DNA of 64,000 bases from Minisyncoccota bacterium (GTDB lineage Bacteria > Patescibacteriota > Minisyncoccia > Minisyncoccales > JAGOPM01): NCBI GenBank assembly GCA_041651395.1, contig JBAZJI010000001.1:571920-635919 (forward strand), in the 5' to 3' direction. This document shows, piece after piece, positions 8,400 through 22,593 of this stretch. Below the pieces are notes generated by a model that was not told the origin of the DNA, searched no databases, and worked only from the letters and a program-made list of their open reading frames with translations. The position numbers were made by a program, and so were the translations under genes. Positions within the stretch are counted from its first letter, which is position 1. Every line of letters starts with the position of its first letter.

Positions 8400-9230
8400 T
8401 TATTTCCCTATTAGCCTTCCCAAAGCGGGATTTAGATTCCCGGAGAGTAATTGCAGGGGCATATCTACTACGCTTATACCTTGGGCAAAAGGCGCAACTT
8501 GATAAGGATTAAAAAATATCAAAGCTGAGCTGCCGGAGAACCCAATGACAGAAAAATTCTCCACGGTGGGCTGCGTGCCCTCAATTATCCAATTTTTGAC
8601 ATCAACTGGCGCGCCTTCATTTTGGGCCAAAAGCGATTTAGCGCAAAACTTTGATATTTCTTCCTTCCAAGGCCCGGAAAAAATTTCCTCCAGCGCCAGC
8701 TCCTTGCCGTTCTGCAAATCTAAATTGACGACAAATACATAACCATTGGGATGGGCGCCCCCCGCCTGATATTGCGAAACATTAAATTTAATACTGGCAA
8801 AGGAATCACTAATCTTTAGGATTTCGTAATCGATAGTCAGCTCGCTTTTTTCCCCGGAGGCAATGGAAAATTTTTCACTATCCTTCTCATTTTCAACAAA
8901 ATCCGTTTTAGCCGCCAAAACCCGATTTTTAAGCGCCTCATTTGCCGCCTTAATAGCCGCGCTTGGGGAAATTATTTCCGGATAGCTAATTTTAATCGCA
9001 TAGAGCGCTCCGCTTTCCTCTAGCTTAAGTTCCCGGGTTTGAGCGATAGGCACTTTATCAGCCGAAGCGCTAAGCTTGGCTGGAGGTAAATTATTGACGG
9101 TCTTCTGGCGACTTTTGATTTCCAAAACAATATAAAATACAGCAATCAGTAAAATGGCAATGATTAAAACCGGAAGGGCCTGTTTTATTTTGAAATCTTT
9201 GGGATGCCTGCCCATACCCAAGTTTAGCAA
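8400..9230 (-). CDS. Membrane-anchored DUF3298/RsiV-like domain protein
   Basis: An N-terminal TM segment, then YQAGGAHPNGYVFVVNLDLQNGKELALEEIF, which resembles the DUF3298 core. The start could also be the internal Met at codon 6. Confidence 0.55.
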   Translation of the reverse strand: MLNLGMGRHPKDFKIKQALPVLIIAILLIAVFYIVLEIKSRQKTVNNLPPAKLSASADKVPIAQTRELKLEESGALYAIKISYPEIISPSAAIKAANEALKNRVLAAKTDFVENEKDSEKFSIASGEKSELTIDYEILKISDSFASIKFNVSQYQAGGAHPNGYVFVVNLDLQNGKELALEEIFSGPWKEEISKFCAKSLLAQNEGAPVDVKNWIIEGTQPTVENFSVIGFSGSSALIFFNPYQVAPFAQGISVVDMPLQLLSGNLNPALGRLIGK

Positions 9231-9307
9231 AAACCAAGGCGCGCCACATAGTGGAAAAGTTTTTTGGGCCAGGGCCGAGGTTTGCGTTATAATAGCAATG
9301 CCAACTT

Positions 9308-10225
9308 ATGCTTAACAATAAGAACAACCCGGTGTTGATTCCAGCTGATGTCCCCTCTGACAAGGAGTGGGAATATTCGCACAATTATAAGGAGATTACC
9401 AAAGGGTCGGGACGGCTCATGCTTTTTGCCGGCGATCAAAAAATCGAACACATGAACGGCGATTTTTTTGGCCCCGGAATTGCCAGTGAGGATAGCGACC
9501 CGGAGCATCTGTTTAGGATAGCCTCTAAAGCCAATATCGGGGCCTTTGCTACCCAGTTGGGGCTGATTGCTAAATACGGGAAAAACTATAAAAATATCCC
9601 CTACATTGTCAAACTGAATTCCAAGACCAATCTTATCCCCTCTAGTGAGCTGGAGCCTTTTTCGGAATTACTTTGGACGATTGAGCAAGTATCCGAATTC
9701 AAGCGCCAATCCGGGTTAAAAATTTGCGGCGTAGGTTATACGCTTTATCCGGGCAGCCAATTTGAATCTGAAATGTTAAAAACTGCCGCCCAAGTTATTT
9801 TCCAGGCCCATCAAAAAGGCTTGGTTGTCGTGCTCTGGATATATCCACGCGGGCAAGCCATAAAGGAGGAGCTCGATCCCCATCTTGTAGCTGGCTGTGC
9901 CGGAATCGGGGCCTGCCTTGGGGCGGATTTCTTGAAGGTTAATGCTCCGCAAGCTCCCGGGAAGCAACTAAAAGAAATTTTTGCCGAGGCCGTCAAGGCC
10001 GCGGGCCGGAGTAAAATAATTTGTGCTGGCGGCCAATGCTGCGACGAAAAGGAATTTTTAACAACGCTAAAAGAGCAGCTAGAGGCTGGAGCTATGGGCA
10101 ATGCCACAGGGCGCAACATCCACCAAAAACCGCTAGAAGAGGCTATAAAATTTTGCAATGCCATTTATACTTTAGTCATTGAAGGCAAAAGCGTGGCCGA
10201 TGCCTTAAAATTGCTAAGTAAATAA
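9308..10225 (+). CDS. Class I fructose-bisphosphate aldolase, DhnA/FbaB (DeoC/LacD) family
   Basis: GADFLKVN Schiff-base lysine block, length around 300 aa, TIM-barrel pattern. TATAAT at 9288-9293. Confidence 0.7.
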   Translation: MLNNKNNPVLIPADVPSDKEWEYSHNYKEITKGSGRLMLFAGDQKIEHMNGDFFGPGIASEDSDPEHLFRIASKANIGAFATQLGLIAKYGKNYKNIPYIVKLNSKTNLIPSSELEPFSELLWTIEQVSEFKRQSGLKICGVGYTLYPGSQFESEMLKTAAQVIFQAHQKGLVVVLWIYPRGQAIKEELDPHLVAGCAGIGACLGADFLKVNAPQAPGKQLKEIFAEAVKAAGRSKIICAGGQCCDEKEFLTTLKEQLEAGAMGNATGRNIHQKPLEEAIKFCNAIYTLVIEGKSVADALKLLSK

Positions 10226-14538: not shown

Positions 14539-15972
14539 TTATTCTTTAGCCATTTCTTCTATTATATTCTGGCTCTTGGGCTTGATGATTTCGGAAAAAT
14601 ACTGCGCGGTCTTTAGGGTTGTGCCCTCGCCCAAAATGGCTTTGCTATCTACTGGCACATCCACAATTTTTTCCGGCGGCAAGCCCGAAATCATATTAAA
14701 CAGATGTGATAAAAAGGTTGTGGCATATTCGCCCTTACCCAAAGTAAAGCTGATAATAATACCGTTATCCATTATCTCGCAGCGCTTGATATCGGCGCTT
14801 TCGATGGTTTTTACATCCCGATGCCTCATTTGGATTTTTGGAAAAGGTTTAAGATTGGCAAAAGGCGGCGGGAAAAGGCCATTAGCCTGCAAAAGTTTTT
14901 CATAAATGCCCCAATCCTTGCGATCAAAACTCAAGAAAAGTGGCAACAAGGCCGGCGGCCTTTTTTTCTGCTGGATTAAAGCCGCTAATTTATAATTAAA
15001 CAGCCAAGAGGAGAAAGCATAAACCCACATTTCGACCTGCTCGATAATCGCGCCAAGCGCCCCCGCATAATCATTAGGATTCTTGATCAAGTATTCAACA
15101 ATCTTTATTTCATTGCCAAAAATTATTGGCAGTTTTTTATATTCTTCCAAAATCCTGGTAAAATCGGGAAACATCTTTCCTAAGCGCCGGCGCATTTCCC
15201 CGATATAGGGCATTTCCCCGTCAGTGGACTGGAACAAAAACATTTTGACCACCGCCTCATATTGCCCGCGCATTATAGTGTAGCCTAATTGGTGGCTTTG
15301 CAGCCGCGGCGTGCCAAATCTCTGCAAATAAAAATAATTATAAAACCCGTGATCGAAAATATGCTGCACATTCTCCAAAAAGGACTTATCTTCCTGCGCT
15401 TCCAAAAGACTCTGCTCGGTGCGCATAAAAACCGTAAACTTATTGCCCAAAAGCCCGCCCTTTTCCACCGCCCCCTTACCCTGTTCGATATCTTTAAGAA
15501 AATAATATTTAGAATTTATTTGCTCAATATCGGCCAAGGGCACATGGCGGAAAGAAATACGCTGAGCAGTTAGGGCATCTTTATCTTTGATGCCCGCGTA
15601 AGCCACTTGCTTAACATCACATTTAAGCTGCTTGGCAATATCCTCGATAGCTTCCAAAGTCCCCATGCCGCACTTCACTAAAGTGGCATAAAAAGTATCG
15701 CCCTCGCCCGTAACTTTAGGCTCTTGTTTTTCTTCCGGCAAATCAATGGTATACACCTGGCCGGTTTGGCTTACTTCTTCTACGATAAAATCCTGAGGGA
15801 AAAATTTCAAAAACCCATTAGGCAGCTTTTCCTTATTGGGAATATGAATGCCAAATTTTTTGAGATATTGAGGATTTTCATAAAAAGTCTTACGGGTAAA
15901 AAGCTGGGGATTAATTTTATATTCCCCGACAAAAAATTCCAACTCCTTCTGTTTTAATCTGAACCTATCCAT
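14539..15972 (-). CDS. truD: tRNA pseudouridine synthase, TruD/Pus7 family
   Basis: FFPQDFIVEEV N-terminal block and the catalytic GIKDKDALTAQRISF (GxKD...TxQ) motif. Confidence 0.8.
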   Translation of the reverse strand: MDRFRLKQKELEFFVGEYKINPQLFTRKTFYENPQYLKKFGIHIPNKEKLPNGFLKFFPQDFIVEEVSQTGQVYTIDLPEEKQEPKVTGEGDTFYATLVKCGMGTLEAIEDIAKQLKCDVKQVAYAGIKDKDALTAQRISFRHVPLADIEQINSKYYFLKDIEQGKGAVEKGGLLGNKFTVFMRTEQSLLEAQEDKSFLENVQHIFDHGFYNYFYLQRFGTPRLQSHQLGYTIMRGQYEAVVKMFLFQSTDGEMPYIGEMRRRLGKMFPDFTRILEEYKKLPIIFGNEIKIVEYLIKNPNDYAGALGAIIEQVEMWVYAFSSWLFNYKLAALIQQKKRPPALLPLFLSFDRKDWGIYEKLLQANGLFPPPFANLKPFPKIQMRHRDVKTIESADIKRCEIMDNGIIISFTLGKGEYATTFLSHLFNMISGLPPEKIVDVPVDSKAILGEGTTLKTAQYFSEIIKPKSQNIIEEMAKE

Positions 15973-16149: not shown

Positions 16150-17388
16150 TTATTTTATTAGGTTTATTGCCTTTTTGAGCCTAATTATGCGCACATACGA
16201 TTCTTCAATTCTTTCGCGCGGAATTTCGCCCTCTACCACTGCGTCGTAAATGGCATTATAAGCCCGACTGGCTATAACCGGATCATATTTTTTCAAATTA
16301 TTACCGATAAGAATAATGTCGCAACCCGCATTTATTGATTCTATGATGGCGCGCTTTAGCCCAAATTCGTCAAGAATCCCCATTTGCATATCATCGGTTA
16401 TAACTACACCCTCAAAGCCCAACATTTTGCGCAAAATTTCATTGACGAATTTGCCCGACATCGAGGCGGGATATTTGCTATCAATCCGCCGGTTATAAAT
16501 ATGGCTCACCATCACGGCGCGTACAGTCCCGTCTTTAATAAGAGATTCGAATGGCTCAATTTCCCGGCTTTGGTATTGCCCGGTTATATCCGCTTTAGCT
16601 ACATGGTTATCTACCGTAGCATTGCCCTGCCCGGGGAAATGCTTCAAAGCCGTTACCACGCCCTTTTTATTATGCTCAACTATAAAAACTCGGGCAAAAT
16701 CAGAAACAACTTTGGGGTCGGAAGAAAATGACCGGCCCAACTTGCCGATTATAGGATTAGCCGGACTATCCAAATCCAGAACAGGCGCCAAATTAAAATT
16801 AATCCCCGCCTCATCAAGCTCTTCAGCCAAACCAGAATAAACTTGTCCGGCATAAGCCAAATCATTCTTACTGGCCACTTCTTTGGCTGAAGGAATTTCC
16901 TTAAAACCGTATTTACTGGAGAGGCGATTAACCGGCCCGCCTTCGCCATCAACGGATATTAAAAGTGGAGTTGCAGCATAACTTTGTAATTGATTGGTTA
17001 AAGCCAACAACTGTTTAGGGCTTTCGATGTTGCGAGGCGCCGCGCTATTGGTTAAATCTTTGTCGAACAAAATAACTCCTCCGATCCCCAATTCCCGTAC
17101 TGCCACGGCGATATCGGATTCTGCCGGGGCCTGCGTTCCGCGAAAGCCCACCATTAACATCTGGCCGATCATATTTTCAATCTTAACATTACGCAGAATT
17201 TCCTCTCCCTCCTGCTTGGCCTCGGGGGAATTGGAAACCGAAGCCGACAGCGAATTTTTGTCTCCTTTTGAAAAAAAGCGCGAGAAATTGCCCGTGCCAC
17301 TGGCCGAAAAATAAATTGCCACTACTGCCAAAATTAAAGCAGTAAAGAGCAAAACTTTTTTTGTAGAAATTTGCGCTCCCATCACCAC
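16150..17388 (-). CDS. nagZ: Beta-N-acetylhexosaminidase, GH3 (NagZ-like), membrane-anchored
   Basis: An N-terminal TM segment, then GH3 motifs KHFPGQGNATVDNH and GVVITDDMQM. Confidence 0.85.
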   Translation of the reverse strand: MVMGAQISTKKVLLFTALILAVVAIYFSASGTGNFSRFFSKGDKNSLSASVSNSPEAKQEGEEILRNVKIENMIGQMLMVGFRGTQAPAESDIAVAVRELGIGGVILFDKDLTNSAAPRNIESPKQLLALTNQLQSYAATPLLISVDGEGGPVNRLSSKYGFKEIPSAKEVASKNDLAYAGQVYSGLAEELDEAGINFNLAPVLDLDSPANPIIGKLGRSFSSDPKVVSDFARVFIVEHNKKGVVTALKHFPGQGNATVDNHVAKADITGQYQSREIEPFESLIKDGTVRAVMVSHIYNRRIDSKYPASMSGKFVNEILRKMLGFEGVVITDDMQMGILDEFGLKRAIIESINAGCDIILIGNNLKKYDPVIASRAYNAIYDAVVEGEIPRERIEESYVRIIRLKKAINLIK

Positions 17389-17456: not shown

Positions 17457-17479
17457 AGAAAAAACCCCTTTAATAGGGG
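17457..17479 (-). terminator. Rho-independent terminator ending the 5-gene operon
   Basis: Minus strand reads cccct-attaa-agggg followed by ttttttc, immediately after the stop at 17480. Confidence 0.65.
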
Positions 17480-18877
17480 TTATAAATAATTGCCGATTTG
17501 CACCTTTTCTGAGTTTTTTTCACCCATGGAAAGGATGCCAATCGGAGCACCGAGTTCATTTTCGAGATAGCGGTGCAAGTCCTCACTGTTGGAAAATTTT
17601 TCCCAGGTTTTTGGCTTAACCTTAAAAAGAATTTCCGCGGCTTGGCTGCGGGCTAGCTCACTTAAGGAATTCTCGCTGCGTATCCCGGTAATTTCTATCT
17701 CGCCGCAGGACATTTCGCGCCAATGGAAAGCTTGGAGCTTTTCTTTATCACCTTTTTGCGGGGAAAAAGAATACGATGTGCAGACAAATATCTCTGTTAG
17801 GGGCGCTATCTGATCAATGCAGGTCAGAGCTAAAACATCTGGCAGTCCGCCGGCTTTAATGGAATATTTGAGCAAAACCATGTCCAGCCAGCCAAAACGC
17901 ATTTTGCCTTGCCAAGGGTTGGGCCCATTAAAATCATCATGAAATGATTGGGGAATCTTTTCCATAGCCGTAGGCAATGGACCCTCACCATGACGCACCG
18001 CGTAGCTGCGAATAATGCCAATAGCTTTACTCTGATAAGTCGGCAAATATCCAGAAATTAGCTCGCGGGCCGCACTAATCGCCACCTCGGAATTAGTTAC
18101 ATAGGGCAAGAACCCGATGCGCCTATCCAAGAGTGTGCCTTGAGTGCTTTCCAAAACCGCCACCCGGCCCGAATCTTTCAATTCGCTGAAATATTGCCCG
18201 TCATCTTTGATGATTGTGGTATATTCTTGGCAATAAGGCAGCCAATTATCCAAAACAGTATCAAGGATGTAAGGACTGGTGGCCTTTTGCCAAATTTCTT
18301 CGGCTTGCGCTCCAGCCTCTTTAGCCAGAGACTGGGCCTCTAAGAGTAAACGCTCTTGGCAAAGGCGCAATTTCTTGGCCAAAATATCCTGATCGAGCAA
18401 GTCACGGGCCCGAGGGGCATCGCTATAATCCTTGGCATAGTCCACAGCTGTACCCACTCCCCGGCCACAAGTCCCATGGCCCCGGCCTTCGGTTTGGCAC
18501 CAATAAATTTCTTGGATACGGCGCAAGGCCGTATGCCAAGGCGTCATAATGACACACTCCTCATCAATAGTCAGGCGGCCCATGGCATCATTAATGCCTT
18601 TAGTCGCCAAAACTTCAGCTTCCCGAATAAAATCTCCGGGCTCAATAACCATTCTCCGGGAAATGTGCGTCCGCACCCCGGGATTAAGCATACCCGAACC
18701 AAACTGGGCAAAAGTGTGGTGTAAACCTTGAGCATGACAAATATTGTGCGCAGCCTGTGGCCCGCCGCAATAACGGATAACATCGACTTGGGGCGCATAT
18801 TGGCCGCAAAGCCAATCAATAATACTCCCCTTACCTTCATCTCCTAAGAATAATCCCGCCGCAATATAAGCTTTCAT
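17480..18877 (-). CDS. Divergent adenylosuccinate-synthetase-like (PurA-family) ligase
   Basis: LGDEGKGSIIDW P-loop, GGPQAAHN, STQGTLLD...YVTNSE, RHGEGPLPT and FGWLD all align with PurA blocks. The Asp-binding TTGRxRR block and the (N/T)KxD block are altered. ATG 18877 overlaps the upstream stop (TAATG). Confidence 0.75.
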   Translation of the reverse strand: MKAYIAAGLFLGDEGKGSIIDWLCGQYAPQVDVIRYCGGPQAAHNICHAQGLHHTFAQFGSGMLNPGVRTHISRRMVIEPGDFIREAEVLATKGINDAMGRLTIDEECVIMTPWHTALRRIQEIYWCQTEGRGHGTCGRGVGTAVDYAKDYSDAPRARDLLDQDILAKKLRLCQERLLLEAQSLAKEAGAQAEEIWQKATSPYILDTVLDNWLPYCQEYTTIIKDDGQYFSELKDSGRVAVLESTQGTLLDRRIGFLPYVTNSEVAISAARELISGYLPTYQSKAIGIIRSYAVRHGEGPLPTAMEKIPQSFHDDFNGPNPWQGKMRFGWLDMVLLKYSIKAGGLPDVLALTCIDQIAPLTEIFVCTSYSFSPQKGDKEKLQAFHWREMSCGEIEITGIRSENSLSELARSQAAEILFKVKPKTWEKFSNSEDLHRYLENELGAPIGILSMGEKNSEKVQIGNYL

Positions 18878-19788
18878 TATAGTTCTCCAAAACGGATATT
18901 CTGCCATGCTTTAATGTGCTCTACTGCTTTTGAAAATAATTCTAAGCTGCAGCAAATCCCATCGGAAAGCATGAAATTTTCATATCCCATTTCTTGGAGC
19001 ATTTCCAAATCCGAAAAATCCCTTAAATCCGGCTCGGAATTTTTTTCCAGACTGGTCATAATCCGCGAAGCAACGATAGCATTTGGGTCTTTGGAGATTA
19101 TGGAATCCAAACAACGGATTATCTCGGCTTTCTGAGCCCCCATATTAATATACAAATCGTCGCGGGCCGCCATTAGCGAAAGACCGGTTTTATCAATCTT
19201 TCCCCACTGGCCCAGAACAAACCTCATGCCGCGCTTACTTTCAATTTTAAGCACAGCCTCGGCTTGCGGGTCAAAAGCGCGCAATTCCTCAATATCCTTT
19301 ACGCTCTCCACAAAGGAAAGCATATAGTTATGAAAATCCAACTCCTTGCCGGCTTTAATCCAACGCTTATCGCCTTCAGTCAAAAAACCGTCAATCTCCA
19401 AGGACTCATCAAGGATGTTTATCGCTTGGCCCTTGCCCACAATGTAATCGGGCCGGGTTTCCAAAACGAGCTTGTTGCCGTCAGTAACATGAGTAATCGA
19501 ACCTCGACAATCCTTAAAAAGCACCTCACAGGGCAAATTGACTTTGATTTTATGACTAATTTCCACCAGCTCATAACAAGTATCACCAAAAGAAGTGATA
19601 CGCAGTTGTCGGCATTTCAAATCAACCCAAAGCGATTTTTTCCCGGCCAAAGTCAACATATCTTGAAGAGTTTCTTTCTCGCTTTTAAGAATGGGCATTG
19701 AGGTATTTATTCTCAACCCGTCAATACTTGGACAGCGAGCAATATCGGCATTGTGTTGGCGTAAGGGCGGCAAAGTAGCAATCAGCAT
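18877..19788 (-). CDS. Pyruvate-kinase-like TIM-barrel protein (barrel only, no C-terminal domain)
   Basis: Collinear with PK motifs: IATLPP (TxGP), GLRINTS (RxNxSHG), LWVDLKCRQLRI (xDxKGPExR), VLKIESKRG (KIEN), LMAARDDLYINMG (MxARGDLG), ASRIMTSLEKNSEPDLRDFSDL (ATQMLESM...PTRAE..D), FMLSDG (MLSGE). Confidence 0.65.
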   Translation of the reverse strand: MLIATLPPLRQHNADIARCPSIDGLRINTSMPILKSEKETLQDMLTLAGKKSLWVDLKCRQLRITSFGDTCYELVEISHKIKVNLPCEVLFKDCRGSITHVTDGNKLVLETRPDYIVGKGQAINILDESLEIDGFLTEGDKRWIKAGKELDFHNYMLSFVESVKDIEELRAFDPQAEAVLKIESKRGMRFVLGQWGKIDKTGLSLMAARDDLYINMGAQKAEIIRCLDSIISKDPNAIVASRIMTSLEKNSEPDLRDFSDLEMLQEMGYENFMLSDGICCSLELFSKAVEHIKAWQNIRFGEL

Positions 19789-19853
19789 ATTCTCCTCCTC
19801 TTCTTGACTATAAATAAAGGGCGGATAGCTCCGCCCCTCTGTTTTGCATCGGC

Positions 19854-20816
19854 TTAGAGCCTGTCTGCACCACCTTTGTTCTTTCTAATCGCCTCGCCCA
19901 AATCTTTGAAACAATCCACTTTGGCTAAAGCGAGTTTTTCGGCCAATGGGTTCAAAGCTTTTGTTACCTCTTGGATTCTGGATTTACTTTGCCCGCGATT
20001 AACCATATCGATAGCATAAGAATCAAGATCTCGGGCTTGGCTAATCATGGAAATTATGCCAAGCATATCATCCACGCAGGCTTTTGGGTCCTTTAACTCG
20101 ATAAAGCGCTCTCCAATCAAGGACTTCCACTTTTTACAAACGGCGTCATCGCTGCCACCATCGTAGGGCTTATGCAAAACAAAAAAGTTGAATCTGGCGG
20201 AAATTTTTTGAAAAATTTCCTCAGACGGGATATCGCTTGGCAGGCTTTCACCAATTACTTCCTCGACCTGCTTGCGTTTCAACTTTGGATAGACACCTTC
20301 ATCTTCGAGCAGGAAAAAGAACGACAGCTCGGATCTGGAAATGTCACAATGGGCGCTGAAGTAATGAGCCATTAATTCATAAGACTCACTGCTCTGTCCG
20401 CCGCCACCGCCTTCCAAATAAAGCTTGGCAATTTCCTCATCGATGGCCTGCCCTTGAGCAAAGTCACAAACCTGCAAAGGCGCTTGGTCTGAATACGCAT
20501 CCCCCACTCCGACAATACAGATTGAAGGATCGGGGAGATAAGCATTCTTGTCCATTTCGCCCCAGAACATCGGGAGCTTGTCATAAATAATCTTAGTCCA
20601 ATCACCCATAGAGCCAGTTACATCCACTGCCACTACAATGGGGTTTTTGTGTTCGCAACGAATATCCCTCATAAAAGGATTAAGATCCTTATGGAGGGAT
20701 TGGCCATTAAACACCCTATCCGAATCGTCGCTGTAGTCGAAACCACCGCTGGAACCTTTGCCTTTGAAGACATTGCGATCATAAGAATCGCTATAACTTC
20801 CGCCGCCACCGCCCAT
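19854..20816 (-). CDS. von Willebrand factor A (vWA) domain protein with Gly-rich N-terminus
   Basis: MIDAS-type VAVDVTGSMGDW and a later VGVGDA. Low-complexity stretches MGGGGGSYSDSYD and LEGGGGGQSSE. Confidence 0.75.
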   Translation of the reverse strand: MGGGGGSYSDSYDRNVFKGKGSSGGFDYSDDSDRVFNGQSLHKDLNPFMRDIRCEHKNPIVVAVDVTGSMGDWTKIIYDKLPMFWGEMDKNAYLPDPSICIVGVGDAYSDQAPLQVCDFAQGQAIDEEIAKLYLEGGGGGQSSESYELMAHYFSAHCDISRSELSFFFLLEDEGVYPKLKRKQVEEVIGESLPSDIPSEEIFQKISARFNFFVLHKPYDGGSDDAVCKKWKSLIGERFIELKDPKACVDDMLGIISMISQARDLDSYAIDMVNRGQSKSRIQEVTKALNPLAEKLALAKVDCFKDLGEAIRKNKGGADRL

Positions 20817-20841: not shown

Positions 20842-21930
20842 TCAAGCTGCCCATGCAGCCTTACGATAATCTTTTCCAAAAAGCCCTTCGCTCATTAAAT
20901 CCCAACGCTCGCATAACCGCCAAGCATCATCAAAACGTTTTTGGACCTTGTCTTCAACCATTCTGCTAATCAGCTCGCGCATTTTTTGCGGCACGGTCAA
21001 AGAGAAAGTTTTTTTTGCGCAATCGCCGCCCAAAAGATTTATGGCTATTTGCCCGATAGAGTAAATATCCATGGCTGGGCCGGGCCTTTCCTTGCGATAA
21101 ACCTCTGGCGCCGAGTAATCCTTACAAGCGCCCAAGATGCGTTCACCGTTTTTAGGATTAGCAACCGCAAAAAAGAAATCGCAGAAGTAAATTTTGCGCG
21201 AGGTTAAATCCAAAATCGTGTTGTTAGGCGCAATAGAGCCATGAATGACGTTTTTGGAATGCAAATTTCCCAAAGAAACCAACGCTTCCAAAATTATCCA
21301 GGCGACATGTTTGGGTTCAAGGCCGCTGAGCCTTTGTTGCCTAAGCGTGGCCAGATCTACCCCGTCAGAATAGCGCATAATCAAGCCAAGTTTTTTCCCG
21401 TAGCTTACCTTGTCAAAAATAAGCGGATATTGGGAATCTTCAAACTGCTTGAAAATCGCCATTTCTCTCTGGAGTAAATCATTATCAGCTTCACTTCTAG
21501 CAATTTTGGCTACTACCCGAAGATTCTGACCCCTCTTGCGATACATTTCGCCCAAATATAGATCCACAATTTTCCCTTCGAAAAGCTTTTCATAAAAACG
21601 ATAATCGCCGTTTTTGGTTGAAAAACTTATCGCGGGATTTTTATTGTAGGGTTGGTGAATTCCATAAATTCCGCGCTCAATTTTAGCCCGGGCTTCCTCA
21701 CGCAAAGCGTTAAGCATCCTGGTCGTTTCTGTGGCCATGGCTAAAATAGCCGGGCTCTCGCAGCGATAGCGATCAGGGTGACAAACGGCGACCAGACTCC
21801 GATAGCGCTGCCCTAAAACTTCGATGGAGGGATTTGAACCTCCCAAATCACCAAACAAATCCTCGGCCAGTGGTGCAGCTCTTAAGGCATCAAAAATTGC
21901 CTGAAGGCTGAGCTTCGCAAAATCAATCAC
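20842..21930 (-). CDS. J-domain protein fused to a protein-kinase-like (probably pseudokinase) domain
   Basis: J domain with YRSLVAVCHPDRY (HPD). The kinase fold shows VVAKIA (beta3 Lys), HGSIAPNN in place of HRDLKPxN, CDFFFA (DFG-like) and YSAPEV (APE). Confidence 0.7.
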   Translation of the reverse strand: MIDFAKLSLQAIFDALRAAPLAEDLFGDLGGSNPSIEVLGQRYRSLVAVCHPDRYRCESPAILAMATETTRMLNALREEARAKIERGIYGIHQPYNKNPAISFSTKNGDYRFYEKLFEGKIVDLYLGEMYRKRGQNLRVVAKIARSEADNDLLQREMAIFKQFEDSQYPLIFDKVSYGKKLGLIMRYSDGVDLATLRQQRLSGLEPKHVAWIILEALVSLGNLHSKNVIHGSIAPNNTILDLTSRKIYFCDFFFAVANPKNGERILGACKDYSAPEVYRKERPGPAMDIYSIGQIAINLLGGDCAKKTFSLTVPQKMRELISRMVEDKVQKRFDDAWRLCERWDLMSEGLFGKDYRKAAWAA

Positions 21931-21945
21931 GATAAACCTCCTTTT

Positions 21946-22593
21946 TTACCACGCTGAACATACTACAAGGTCTAGCCGCTCCCTTTGAATATGGCCAAAC
22001 CTTTCAAAGCAACTTTGGGCATGCAAAAAGCGAGAAATTATCTCTAGCTCATCCATGCCATAAATCCTATCGCGGACCAAACGCCGCTGCAAACGAGTGA
22101 AAAACGGGGCGTATGCCCAGATATTGAATGGTTTAGGCAGCAAATCACGACAAAACAGGATAGAATAAAGACCCTCAATAATGATAAGCTTGCTGCTGCG
22201 TATTATCCGGTCAAAACGGGGTTGGCGCCTATTACTAGCCAAATCATAGCTGGGATAAATTGTCTCCCGGCCGGCAGCCAAGGCTGCCACCGCTTTTCGC
22301 AAATCACTGTAACGATAAGATTGCGGCCAATCAAAAGAGATTGCTCCATTTTCCGTTCGAGGTAATTTACAATCGTCAATGTCGCGAAACCAATCGTCCA
22401 TCCGCAAAACCGCCGCTAATTGGCCAACTTTTTGGGTATAAGCCAGAGCCAATTCCTCTCCGATAGTAGTTTTCCCAGAGCAAGAAGGCCCGCTAATACA
22501 TACCAAAATGGGCGTCGCGCCTGAGCTGGAAATTTGGCCTAGTAAAATGCTTTCCGCTTCCTCCTTACCTATAAAGCATCTTATTCCTTGCAT
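21946..22593 (-). CDS. Uridine kinase / phosphoribulokinase-family P-loop nucleoside kinase
   Basis: ISGPSCSGKTTIG, SFDWPQSYRYSDL, YPSYDLASNRR, LIIIEGLY and RLQRRLVRDRIYG are collinear with Udk blocks. SD taaggagg lies before the ATG. Confidence 0.75.
   Translation of the reverse strand: MQGIRCFIGKEEAESILLGQISSSGATPILVCISGPSCSGKTTIGEELALAYTQKVGQLAAVLRMDDWFRDIDDCKLPRTENGAISFDWPQSYRYSDLRKAVAALAAGRETIYPSYDLASNRRQPRFDRIIRSSKLIIIEGLYSILFCRDLLPKPFNIWAYAPFFTRLQRRLVRDRIYGMDELEIISRFLHAQSCFERFGHIQRERLDLVVCSAW

Follow-up and report, generated by a model that had tools for sequence, protein, structure and literature searches.

A short pyruvate kinase paralogue in a vWA gene cassette of a Minisyncoccota bacterium, with a possible role in phosphoenolpyruvate-driven nucleotide supply

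Pyruvate kinase (PK; EC 2.7.1.40; PF00224 plus PF02887) is usually seen as a single-purpose glycolytic enzyme, built from a (beta/alpha)8-barrel A domain with a lid after strand 3 and a C-terminal domain for allostery and tetramerisation. Here we describe a 303-residue PK-like protein encoded in a 64,000-nucleotide stretch of the genome of a Minisyncoccota bacterium (contig JBAZJI010000001.1, positions 571,920 to 635,919; the window, below, means this whole stretch), which belongs to a distinct and conserved clade of short PKs that is wired into a cassette of genes for a von Willebrand factor A (vWA) protein and a kinase or AAA+ ATPase. Two described systems bear comparison with this gene neighbourhood. 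The TerY-P triad combines a TerY-like vWA protein, a PP2C phosphatase and a Ser/Thr kinase, and its modules act as stand-alone defence systems (Anantharaman 2012 and Gao 2020, cited after PMC11090510). In type IV CBASS, a QueC-family enzyme modifies a partner protein with 7-deazaguanine at its N-terminal glycine, and the same modification is probable for QatBC, where the partner carries an MGGS/MGTS motif and a long unstructured tail (PMC13279940). The cassette of the window, with its vWA protein, J-domain pseudokinase, PurA-like ligase and PK-like protein, is undescribed; it was not found in the literature that we searched on PK, PurA, vWA, defence, TerY and truncated Patescibacteria PKs. At a probability of roughly 0.42, we favour the reading that the protein is a competent, C-domain-less PK paralogue bound to this cassette, which would use phosphoenolpyruvate (PEP) to recharge nucleoside diphosphates (NDPs), notably the GDP of the PurA-like enzyme, under the control of partner proteins. 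The gene and its most unusual segment lie as follows.

18877..19788, minus strand: PK-like gene, 303 aa, stop codon at 18879-18877; A-domain TIM barrel with a reduced B-like lid.
19414..19602, minus strand: the reduced lid, codons ~63-125; a small all-beta insert where PKs carry the B domain (from DSSP of the AlphaFold2 model and PKM alignments).

A short branch of the pyruvate kinase family

We regard it as practically certain that the PK-like protein is a genuine member of the PK family and fold. It matched the Pfam model of the PK barrel (PF00224) with 38.6 bits at a cut-off of 30, residues 98-274 falling on profile positions 137-314, and in the PDB its phmmer match covered residues 192-361 of PKM, while a family profile of 37 relatives matched PKs in the PDB at E 1e-11. 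The AlphaFold2 (AF2) model, built on an alignment of 37 relatives, reached a mean predicted local distance difference test score (pLDDT) of 95.2 and a predicted template-modelling score (pTM) of 0.92, and its best 50 Foldseek matches in the PDB were all PKs (E 1e-16; TM-score 0.76, query-normalised). The motifs IATLPP, RINTSMP, DLKCRQLR, KIE, ARDDLY, ASRIMTSLE and MLSDG follow one another in PK order. As the shortened lid led hhalign to misalign the N-terminal third against PKM2, the HMMER alignment to PDB 7oo1 was used for that part.

A first-pass annotation, made from the sequence letters, had read here a 303-aa open reading frame (ORF) with collinear PK motifs and no C-terminal regulatory domain, the substitutions KCRQ, ARDDLY and MLSDG, and a stop codon overlapping the start of a PurA-like gene. 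Each of these points was confirmed: the motifs by the barrel score, the PDB profile matches and the motif alignments; the missing domain by the lack of a PK_C (PF02887) match and by the AF2 model, which stops at the last A-domain helix; the substitutions by their conservation in the family; and the overlap by the letters TAATG. The description 'barrel-only' holds for the C domain but not for the lid, of which ~60 aa remain in the AF2 model, about 40 fewer than in the canonical B domain of ~100 aa. Among NCBIfam models, solely those of PKs matched, far under their equivalog cut-offs (TIGR01064, 44.7 vs 306 bits; PRK05826, 54 vs 432 bits). The protein thus combines a barrel match above the cut-off, the PK fold and the catalytic constellation with the loss of what marks a glycolytic PK, namely the C domain, a full-size lid with its lysine and an equivalog-level score. 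It is a distinct, functionally re-deployed PK subfamily. NCBI labels the window protein 'pyruvate kinase', and public records of the clade read either 'pyruvate kinase' or 'hypothetical'.

The active site of canonical PK is retained throughout this family. We computed residue conservation over 229 full-length relatives (PKM numbering in brackets) and found R26 (R73) in 98%, N28 (N75) in 98%, D56 (D113) in 99%, R63 (R120) in 97%, K181 (K270) in 99%, E183 (E272) in 99.6%, D211 (D296) in 99% and S241 (T328) in 98%; R26, R63, K181, E183, D211 and S241 are also present in the window protein itself. The catalytic lysine, the two Mg ligands, both phosphate-binding arginines and the Thr/Ser position of the proton relay are hence shared with canonical PKs. 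As the residues for phosphoryl transfer are near-invariant, a PEP-dependent phosphotransferase is a reasonable assignment, and the protein is probably active as such. The residues that deviate from canonical PKs are equally conserved in the 229 relatives (K58 95%, R60 94%, Q61 97%, D276 98%). They are not signs of local decay: the motifs DLKxRQLR, ARDDL and MLSD are family signatures in place of the canonical D(T/L)(K/Q)GP(E/K)xR, ARGDL and MLSGE.

The closest canonical type is found among K+-independent PKs such as PDB 7oo1, whose D-L-Q-G-P-K-L-R motif the D-L-K-x-R-Q-L-R of the short family resembles, with the positive charge displaced. The short family also has Leu at the T114 position, as do K+-independent PKs, and the K+ ligand Ser77 is not conserved among the 229 relatives. 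The 7oo1-type motif was reportedly described by Oria-Hernandez and colleagues in 2006 as a mark of K+-independent PKs. From the similar motif and the unconserved Ser77 we infer that the short enzyme would be K+-independent. The lid has changed where a canonical PK meets its nucleotide. The lysine of the canonical 'KKGVNLPG' segment (K207), which touches the nucleotide phosphates, is replaced by glycine in the short family (G-x-G-E/Q-P-V-N-I; G120 in 98% of 229), so that the acceptor site is remodelled. Another short PDB entry, 8iw2 ('pyruvate kinase', 321 aa), likewise has no C domain and carries an 'LSDE' variant of MLSGE. On the family profile its alignment covers residues 11-281 (E 1.7e-11), but it is distant, no closer than full-length PKs, and it retains canonical RxNxSH and DLQGxKxR motifs.

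The family is sharply bounded and widely scattered. A homologue search with the PK-like protein gave 490 relatives of ~300 aa, and an exhaustive profile search covered 1.84 billion cluster representatives; 159 clusters (50% identity) lay at E<=1e-30, with canonical PKs clearly apart at about 40-50 bits. In a scan of one genome per species, relatives occurred in 390 of 185,579 species. Bacterial hosts include the candidate phyla radiation (CPR), Myxococcales (one on a 3.3-Mb contig), Planctomycetota, Clostridia, Spirochaetes, Acidobacteriota, Chloroflexota and Gammaproteobacteria, and many DPANN archaea carry the gene as well. Viral carriers are a 485-kb uncultured phage (LR745208) and two IMG/VR contigs, while the family was not found in 72,556 plasmids and the BFVD viral fold library held no match to the PK-like protein.

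One CPR genome (locus L036) encodes a canonical PK of 473 aa (PK 367 bits, PK_C 111 bits) only 6 kb from its short relative. Because a canonical PK coexists there with the short one, and because the same cassette recurs across phyla, in large genomes and in phages, the PK-like protein is very probably not a housekeeping glycolytic enzyme. Should its role be confirmed, metabolic reconstructions of CPR and DPANN organisms that count this gene as their glycolytic PK would need correction. The cassette can be duplicated within one genome, with two PK-like and three vWA-like genes on a single 13-kb contig of a Saccharibacteria-labelled metagenome-assembled genome (MAG; L009).

A cassette around a vWA protein

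In the window, the PK-like gene is accompanied by four further genes of the same strand.

21946..22593, minus strand: Udk/PRK-family P-loop nucleoside(-tide) kinase-like protein, 215 aa.
20842..21930, minus strand: J domain (HPD) plus protein-kinase fold without the catalytic Asp; predicted pseudokinase.
19854..20816, minus strand: vWA protein with a metal ion-dependent adhesion site (MIDAS), 320 aa; disordered N-terminal tail beginning MGGGGGSYS..YDRNV.
17480..18877, minus strand: PurA-like ligase, 465 aa from M11; coupled to the PK-like gene via the TAATG overlap.

We called ORFs in 88 loci, ran hidden Markov models from the five window genes and from variant loci on them, and counted neighbours in non-redundant loci with complete flanks (34 bacterial, 20 archaea-labelled). 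The tightest partner of the PK-like gene proved to be the upstream vWA gene, not the PurA-like gene: a ~320-aa vWA protein adjoined it in 33/34 bacterial and 20/20 archaea-labelled loci (53/54 overall). A kinase-fold protein was near in 21 of the bacterial and all 20 of the archaea-labelled loci, whereas an AAA+ ATPase (PF00004) with a 226-aa partner occurred in 9/34 and 0/20, the PurA-like gene in 30/34 and 2/20, and a Udk/PRK-like kinase in 12/34 and 0/20. The regulator module, kinase or AAA+, thus interchanges around a constant pair of vWA and PK-like genes. Scattered horizontally among genomes, the cassette has the vWA protein as its hub and the PK-like gene as a fixed member.

The vWA protein had no sequence match in Pfam, NCBIfam or the PDB, and its identity was seen solely through its AF2 model (pLDDT 86), which Foldseek matched to integrin I-domains, vWF A1 and other vWA domains. 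A MIDAS motif (DxTGS...GDE) and a YDR(D/N)V motif are conserved, and the C-terminal end is basic (...RL). Homologues from protists (MMETSP transcriptomes, Pelomyxa) carry U-box, Nudix or SAM domains as fusions. The window kinase reads HGSIAPNN, without the catalytic Asp, and DFF for DFG, while its ATP-binding Lys and alphaC Glu are conserved. Judged by its sequence, this protein is a probable pseudokinase that binds ATP and brings in DnaK. Loss of the catalytic Asp is common to the bacterial versions, whereas archaeal and phage kinases keep HGDxKPxN and DFG and look active. In PADLOC, the kinase matched the PD-T4-6 and mad6 kinase models, both generic kinase matches only; the PK-like and PurA-like proteins matched no model, and the vWA protein gave one marginal match (HEC-02B, E 0.009).

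With the TerY-P triad, this arrangement shares a MIDAS vWA gene beside a gene for a Ser/Thr-kinase fold, a patchy phyletic spread and, in some variants, a CDC48/SpoVK-like AAA+ ATPase. It differs in that the bacterial kinase has a J domain and no catalytic Asp, no PP2C is present among the five window genes, and the vWA protein matches by sequence neither a Pfam vWA model nor PADLOC TerY-P, while metabolic-type enzymes such as the PK-like and PurA-like proteins are unknown in TerY-P. The window cassette is not a TerY-P triad, as PP2C and an active kinase are lacking.

The PurA-like ligase shares with PurA and with phage PurZ the fold, the GDEGKG P-loop and, for binding GTP and activating the 6-oxopurine, counterparts of His41, Gln224 and Asp333. 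Its family profile matched PurA in the PDB at E 5e-74, and the protein itself scored 180 bits vs an equivalog cut-off of 402. PurA and PurZ differ from this clade in their aspartate loop and in Val273: the E. coli loop G-x-T-T-G-R-R-R-R-x-G-W reads H-N-x-x-x-x-W-Q-G-x-F-R-x-G in 120/120 of the closest homologues, and Val273 has become His. The residues T301, R303, R305 and V273, which we take to bind L-aspartate in the E. coli enzyme (Honzatko/Fromm structures), have given way to W, G, F and H, both in the family consensus and in each of the 120. As the presumed aspartate-binding residues are replaced, the partner appears, on alignment, not to be a PurA, its aspartate site being lost. Further motifs of the clade are GG[AP]QAAHN, GSCGxGxG, TRHGxGP and LTHLD, and its public label, adenylosuccinate synthetase, extends to cultured Actinomadura and Thermomonospora strains.

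The PurA-like gene also occurs in operons that have no PK-like gene. These consist of an NrtR-like gene (Nudix plus WHD_NrtR), a J-pseudokinase, a vWA protein (MGSGxW...) and the PurA-like ligase, and are carried by Actinomadura viridis, Thermomonospora amylolytica (CP032402.1) and two MAGs (L094, L096, L097, L098); in L097 an ADP-ribosylglycohydrolase gene adjoins the operon. The NrtR-type regulator at their head suggests ADP-ribose as a control signal. As PK-less PurA-like operons and PurA-less PK-like cassettes both exist, the two enzymes are separable modules on a vWA/regulator core, and we discarded the idea that a PK-like gene is in every case there for the PurA-like enzyme. The cultured strains with the PK-less operon offer a starting point for experiments.

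In archaeal loci, a 290-aa protein (A5) takes the place of the PurA-like gene between the vWA and PK-like genes (in L042 at 9114-9992). It carries the invariant motifs GGR..TDW, WWLE..S and GE..HF.SH and a C-terminal KS.KLA, and had no relative in Pfam or the PDB. The archaeal cassettes (L027-L087) lie amid NMNAT-like, Nudix, NAD-kinase-like, ADP-ribosylglycohydrolase, nucleoside hydrolase and NadA genes. As a strict Nudix-box expression picked up Nudix ORFs in no more than 14 of ~80 loci, a link to NAD and ADP-ribose rests mainly on the archaeal and actinobacterial operons. Viral cassettes, in phage LR745208 (L090, 5934-8897) and in an uncultured IMG/VR viral genome (L089, 4739-12233), hold a J-kinase, the vWA and the PK-like gene with or without the PurA-like gene; the phage kinase looks catalytically active by its sequence. 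Thg1-like and ADP-ribosylglycohydrolase genes are found near the viral cassettes, and a weak TelA-like gene and an AAA ATPase head the cassette in L089.

As a separate observation, a 526-aa protein with a weak GGDEF-like domain replaces the PurA-like protein after the PK-like gene in one locus (L001, 10928-12508) and follows the PurA-like gene in another (L020, 12392-14008). It would be a further GTP-using enzyme attached to the cassette.

Nucleotide supply, nucleotide tagging and rival explanations

A nucleotide acceptor for the PK-like protein is plausible from the gene context. The cassette probably uses PEP to power a nucleotide-handling or nucleotide-tagging reaction. In the reading that we favour, the PK-like protein would move the phosphoryl group of PEP to an NDP, above all to the GDP released by the coupled PurA-like ligase, with the product of the Udk-like kinase as a second acceptor in the window cassette. 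Inhibitory GDP would thereby be removed, and GTP and ATP would become available to the cassette enzymes independently of the cellular pool of nucleoside triphosphates (NTPs). In that case, a regulated module that modifies nucleotides would have PEP as its own, private source of energy. Background on the enzymes fits such a scheme: PK accepts GDP and other NDPs, adenylosuccinate synthetase is inhibited by GDP, and PK with PEP is the usual coupling system in assays of that enzyme. As there is no C domain, there would be no regulation by sugar phosphates either, and control could pass to protein partners, that is, to the vWA protein together with the J-domain/DnaK or AAA+ component. By analogy with MoxR-vWA activase pairs, the vWA protein and the J-domain or AAA+ protein would be natural candidates for controllers of the PK-like enzyme.

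NTP regeneration by the PK-like protein, taken by itself, is a proposal that we make tentatively. It is favoured by the NTP-consuming partners, namely the PurA-like ligase, the Udk-like kinase and, in one relative, a PK-like protein fused to QueC, as well as by the NMNAT-like and NAD-kinase-like genes in archaeal loci. Several observations weigh against it. PurA-like operons in Actinomadura, Thermomonospora and others exist without a PK-like gene, and archaeal and phage cassettes carry the PK-like gene without the PurA-like one; since the enzymes are separable, GTP supply for the PurA-like ligase can account for no more than part of the role. Simple NTP regeneration also gives no reason for the near-absolute linkage to the vWA gene. 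QueC-type enzymes yield AMP and PPi, which PK does not recycle. Finally, with the lid shortened and the nucleotide-contacting lysine lost, the acceptor may not be a free NDP.

An extension of the same ideas would make the cassette a nucleotide-protein conjugation system that parallels QueC-mediated deazaguanylation, with a purine nucleotide placed on the vWA tail. We consider this analogy-based view unlikely, yet it turns the PurA-like clade without an aspartate site and the MG-tailed vWA protein into a candidate, open to direct test, for a new chemistry that joins nucleotides to proteins. With GTP, the PurA-like enzyme would phosphorylate the C6 oxygen of IMP, or of a related 6-oxopurine nucleotide, and would accept the alpha-amine of the N-terminal glycine of the vWA protein instead of aspartate, giving an N6-tethered purine nucleotide. 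The PK-like enzyme would drive this reaction with PEP by recycling GDP and, together with the Udk-like kinase, might raise the tethered monophosphate to the triphosphate, which could dock either at the MIDAS of the vWA protein or within the ATP pocket of the dead J-domain kinase. ADP-ribose would switch the system on, as the NrtR-type regulators of the PK-less versions would have it.

The loss of the carboxylate-binding residues in the PurA-like enzyme and the MG tail of the vWA protein suggest that a glycine alpha-amine could replace aspartate. An MG(G/S) N-terminus was found in 30/33 vWA proteins with a PurA-like gene vs 2/26 without, a contrast that phylogeny confounds; it recurs in the actinobacterial operons without a PK-like gene. 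Across 36 vWA homologues G2 is invariant, and the first ~30 residues of the vWA protein are predicted to be disordered (AF2, pLDDT<60). QatBC and type IV CBASS thus share with the cassette a partner with a conserved MG(G/S) N-terminus and a long disordered tail, and an adjacent enzyme of a nucleobase- or nucleotide-biosynthesis family that would activate a substrate and couple it to an amine. They differ in that the candidate enzyme in the window is PurA-like rather than QueC-like and the substrate would be a vWA protein; the analogy covers the neighbours, the PK-like protein having no counterpart in Qat or CBASS. No QueC-family gene is present in the window, and a fusion to QueC was seen in one relative only, P0292 (L091, 5317-7023), in which a PK-like domain is joined to a QueC-family PP-loop domain. 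P0292 is preceded by a MGGGSS-vWA gene and lies among NrdD, thymidylate-synthase-like, AAA_28 kinase and dCTP deaminase genes. These surroundings resemble a phage-like nucleotide-modification cluster.

Other explanations read the same cassette differently. One would make the PK-like protein the regulated effector of a TerY-P-like conflict system, acting against phages or between mobile elements: the vWA protein with its J-(pseudo)kinase or AAA+ would sense a trigger and license an otherwise silent, allostery-free PK that drains PEP or rewires nucleotide pools, with the PurA-like enzyme as an accessory. The layout of vWA with a Ser/Thr kinase or SpoVK/CDC48-like AAA+ does resemble TerY-P modules, the kinase matches to PD-T4-6 and mad6 point the same way, and so do the patchy spread, as if by horizontal transfer, over 390/185,579 species and huge phages, the swapping of the regulator around a constant pair, and the TelA-like gene in L089. 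We nevertheless hold a conflict role to be improbable. The cassette lacks a PP2C phosphatase, the PK-like protein and, apart from its one marginal match, the vWA protein match no PADLOC model, and the family is missing from the plasmids searched; moreover, making ATP from PEP would benefit rather than harm a phage, the archaeal loci lie amid ordinary NAD-biosynthesis genes, and the window locus is in no obvious defence island. Less probable again is an acceptor that is linked to protein, such that the PK-like enzyme would use PEP to phosphorylate the N-terminal tail of the vWA protein or a nucleotide tethered to it. A protein or a tethered nucleotide is not, to our knowledge, an established physiological substrate of any enzyme of the PK family, and no peptide-binding groove could be identified from the sequence. 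Such an acceptor would, on the other hand, account for the vWA adjacency in 53/54 loci, for the remodelled lid without its lysine and for the conservation of the extreme vWA N-terminus ahead of a disordered tail, and it is in line with the one QueC-fused relative, as the QueC family modifies the N-termini of partners (PMC13279940).

Two further possibilities concern the identity of the enzyme itself. That a reduced CPR genome simply keeps a streamlined glycolytic PK, in an operon for nucleotide salvage and energy (Udk, PurA, Pyk), would suit the NCBI label, the intact catalytic residues, a host that is a Paceibacterota MAG with a small genome, and the fact that the 64-kb window, out of a contig of 957 kb, contains no other PK. 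It is very unlikely, given the canonical PK beside the short copy in L036, the same cassette in Myxococcales, Planctomycetota, Clostridia and phages, the score of 44.7 bits where the PK equivalog requires 306, and a PurA-like partner without the aspartate-binding residues. The first-pass annotation had itself suggested a possible non-glycolytic, PEP-dependent phosphotransferase acting on a nucleotide; the PK family, the conserved active site and the coexisting canonical PK bear out part of this, and the nucleotide acceptor is plausible from context. Its alternative, a C-C lyase of the PEP/pyruvate superfamily (HpcH/HpaI/CitE-like) or a PEP mutase-like enzyme as in Ter-linked modules, did not survive the comparison of profiles and folds that it had called for, in which the protein fell inside the PK family, and we see next to no chance for it. 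The shared TIM-barrel superfamily and a loose Ter/TelA theme, through the vWA protein and the weak TelA-like neighbour in L089, would speak for a lyase. Yet no second Pfam family matched the protein at E<=1, so that HpcH_HpaI (PF03328) and PEP mutase went undetected, the top 50 structural matches were PKs without exception, the equivalents of K270, E272, D296, R73 and R120 are at least 97% conserved, and a remnant of the B domain sits at the PK-specific insertion point. An HpcH/CitE or PEP-mutase identity was rejected on the first two of these grounds.

Operon signals and flanking genes

The final A of the PK-like stop codon, TAA (18879-18877), is also the first letter of the PurA-like ATG (18877-18875), the PurA-like ORF being read from MKAYIAAGLFLGDEGKG. 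Further signals and the genes downstream of the cassette are these.

19792..19800, minus strand: Shine-Dalgarno-like ribosome-binding site GAGGAGGAG, 3 nt ahead of the PK-like start codon; read directly from the sequence.
19816..19839, minus strand: terminator- or attenuator-like hairpin with a 10-bp stem, 6 GC pairs and a T-rich tail, within the 65 nt that separate the vWA gene from the PK-like gene.
17463..17481, minus strand: terminator-like hairpin with a T-run at the end of the PurA-like gene, directly behind its stop codon.
16150-17388, minus strand: NagZ-like glycosidase of family GH3, membrane-anchored at its N terminus, directly downstream of the cassette.
14539-15972, minus strand: TruD-type pseudouridine synthase, 477 aa, downstream of the cassette.

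The neighbours of the cassette in the window (NagZ, TruD and surface proteins) are ordinary and give no sign of a defence island. The hairpin inside the operon is a consensus match only, such sites being no commoner in the region than in shuffled sequence; as an attenuator, it could set stoichiometry. The operon likely ends at the hairpin at 17463-17481.

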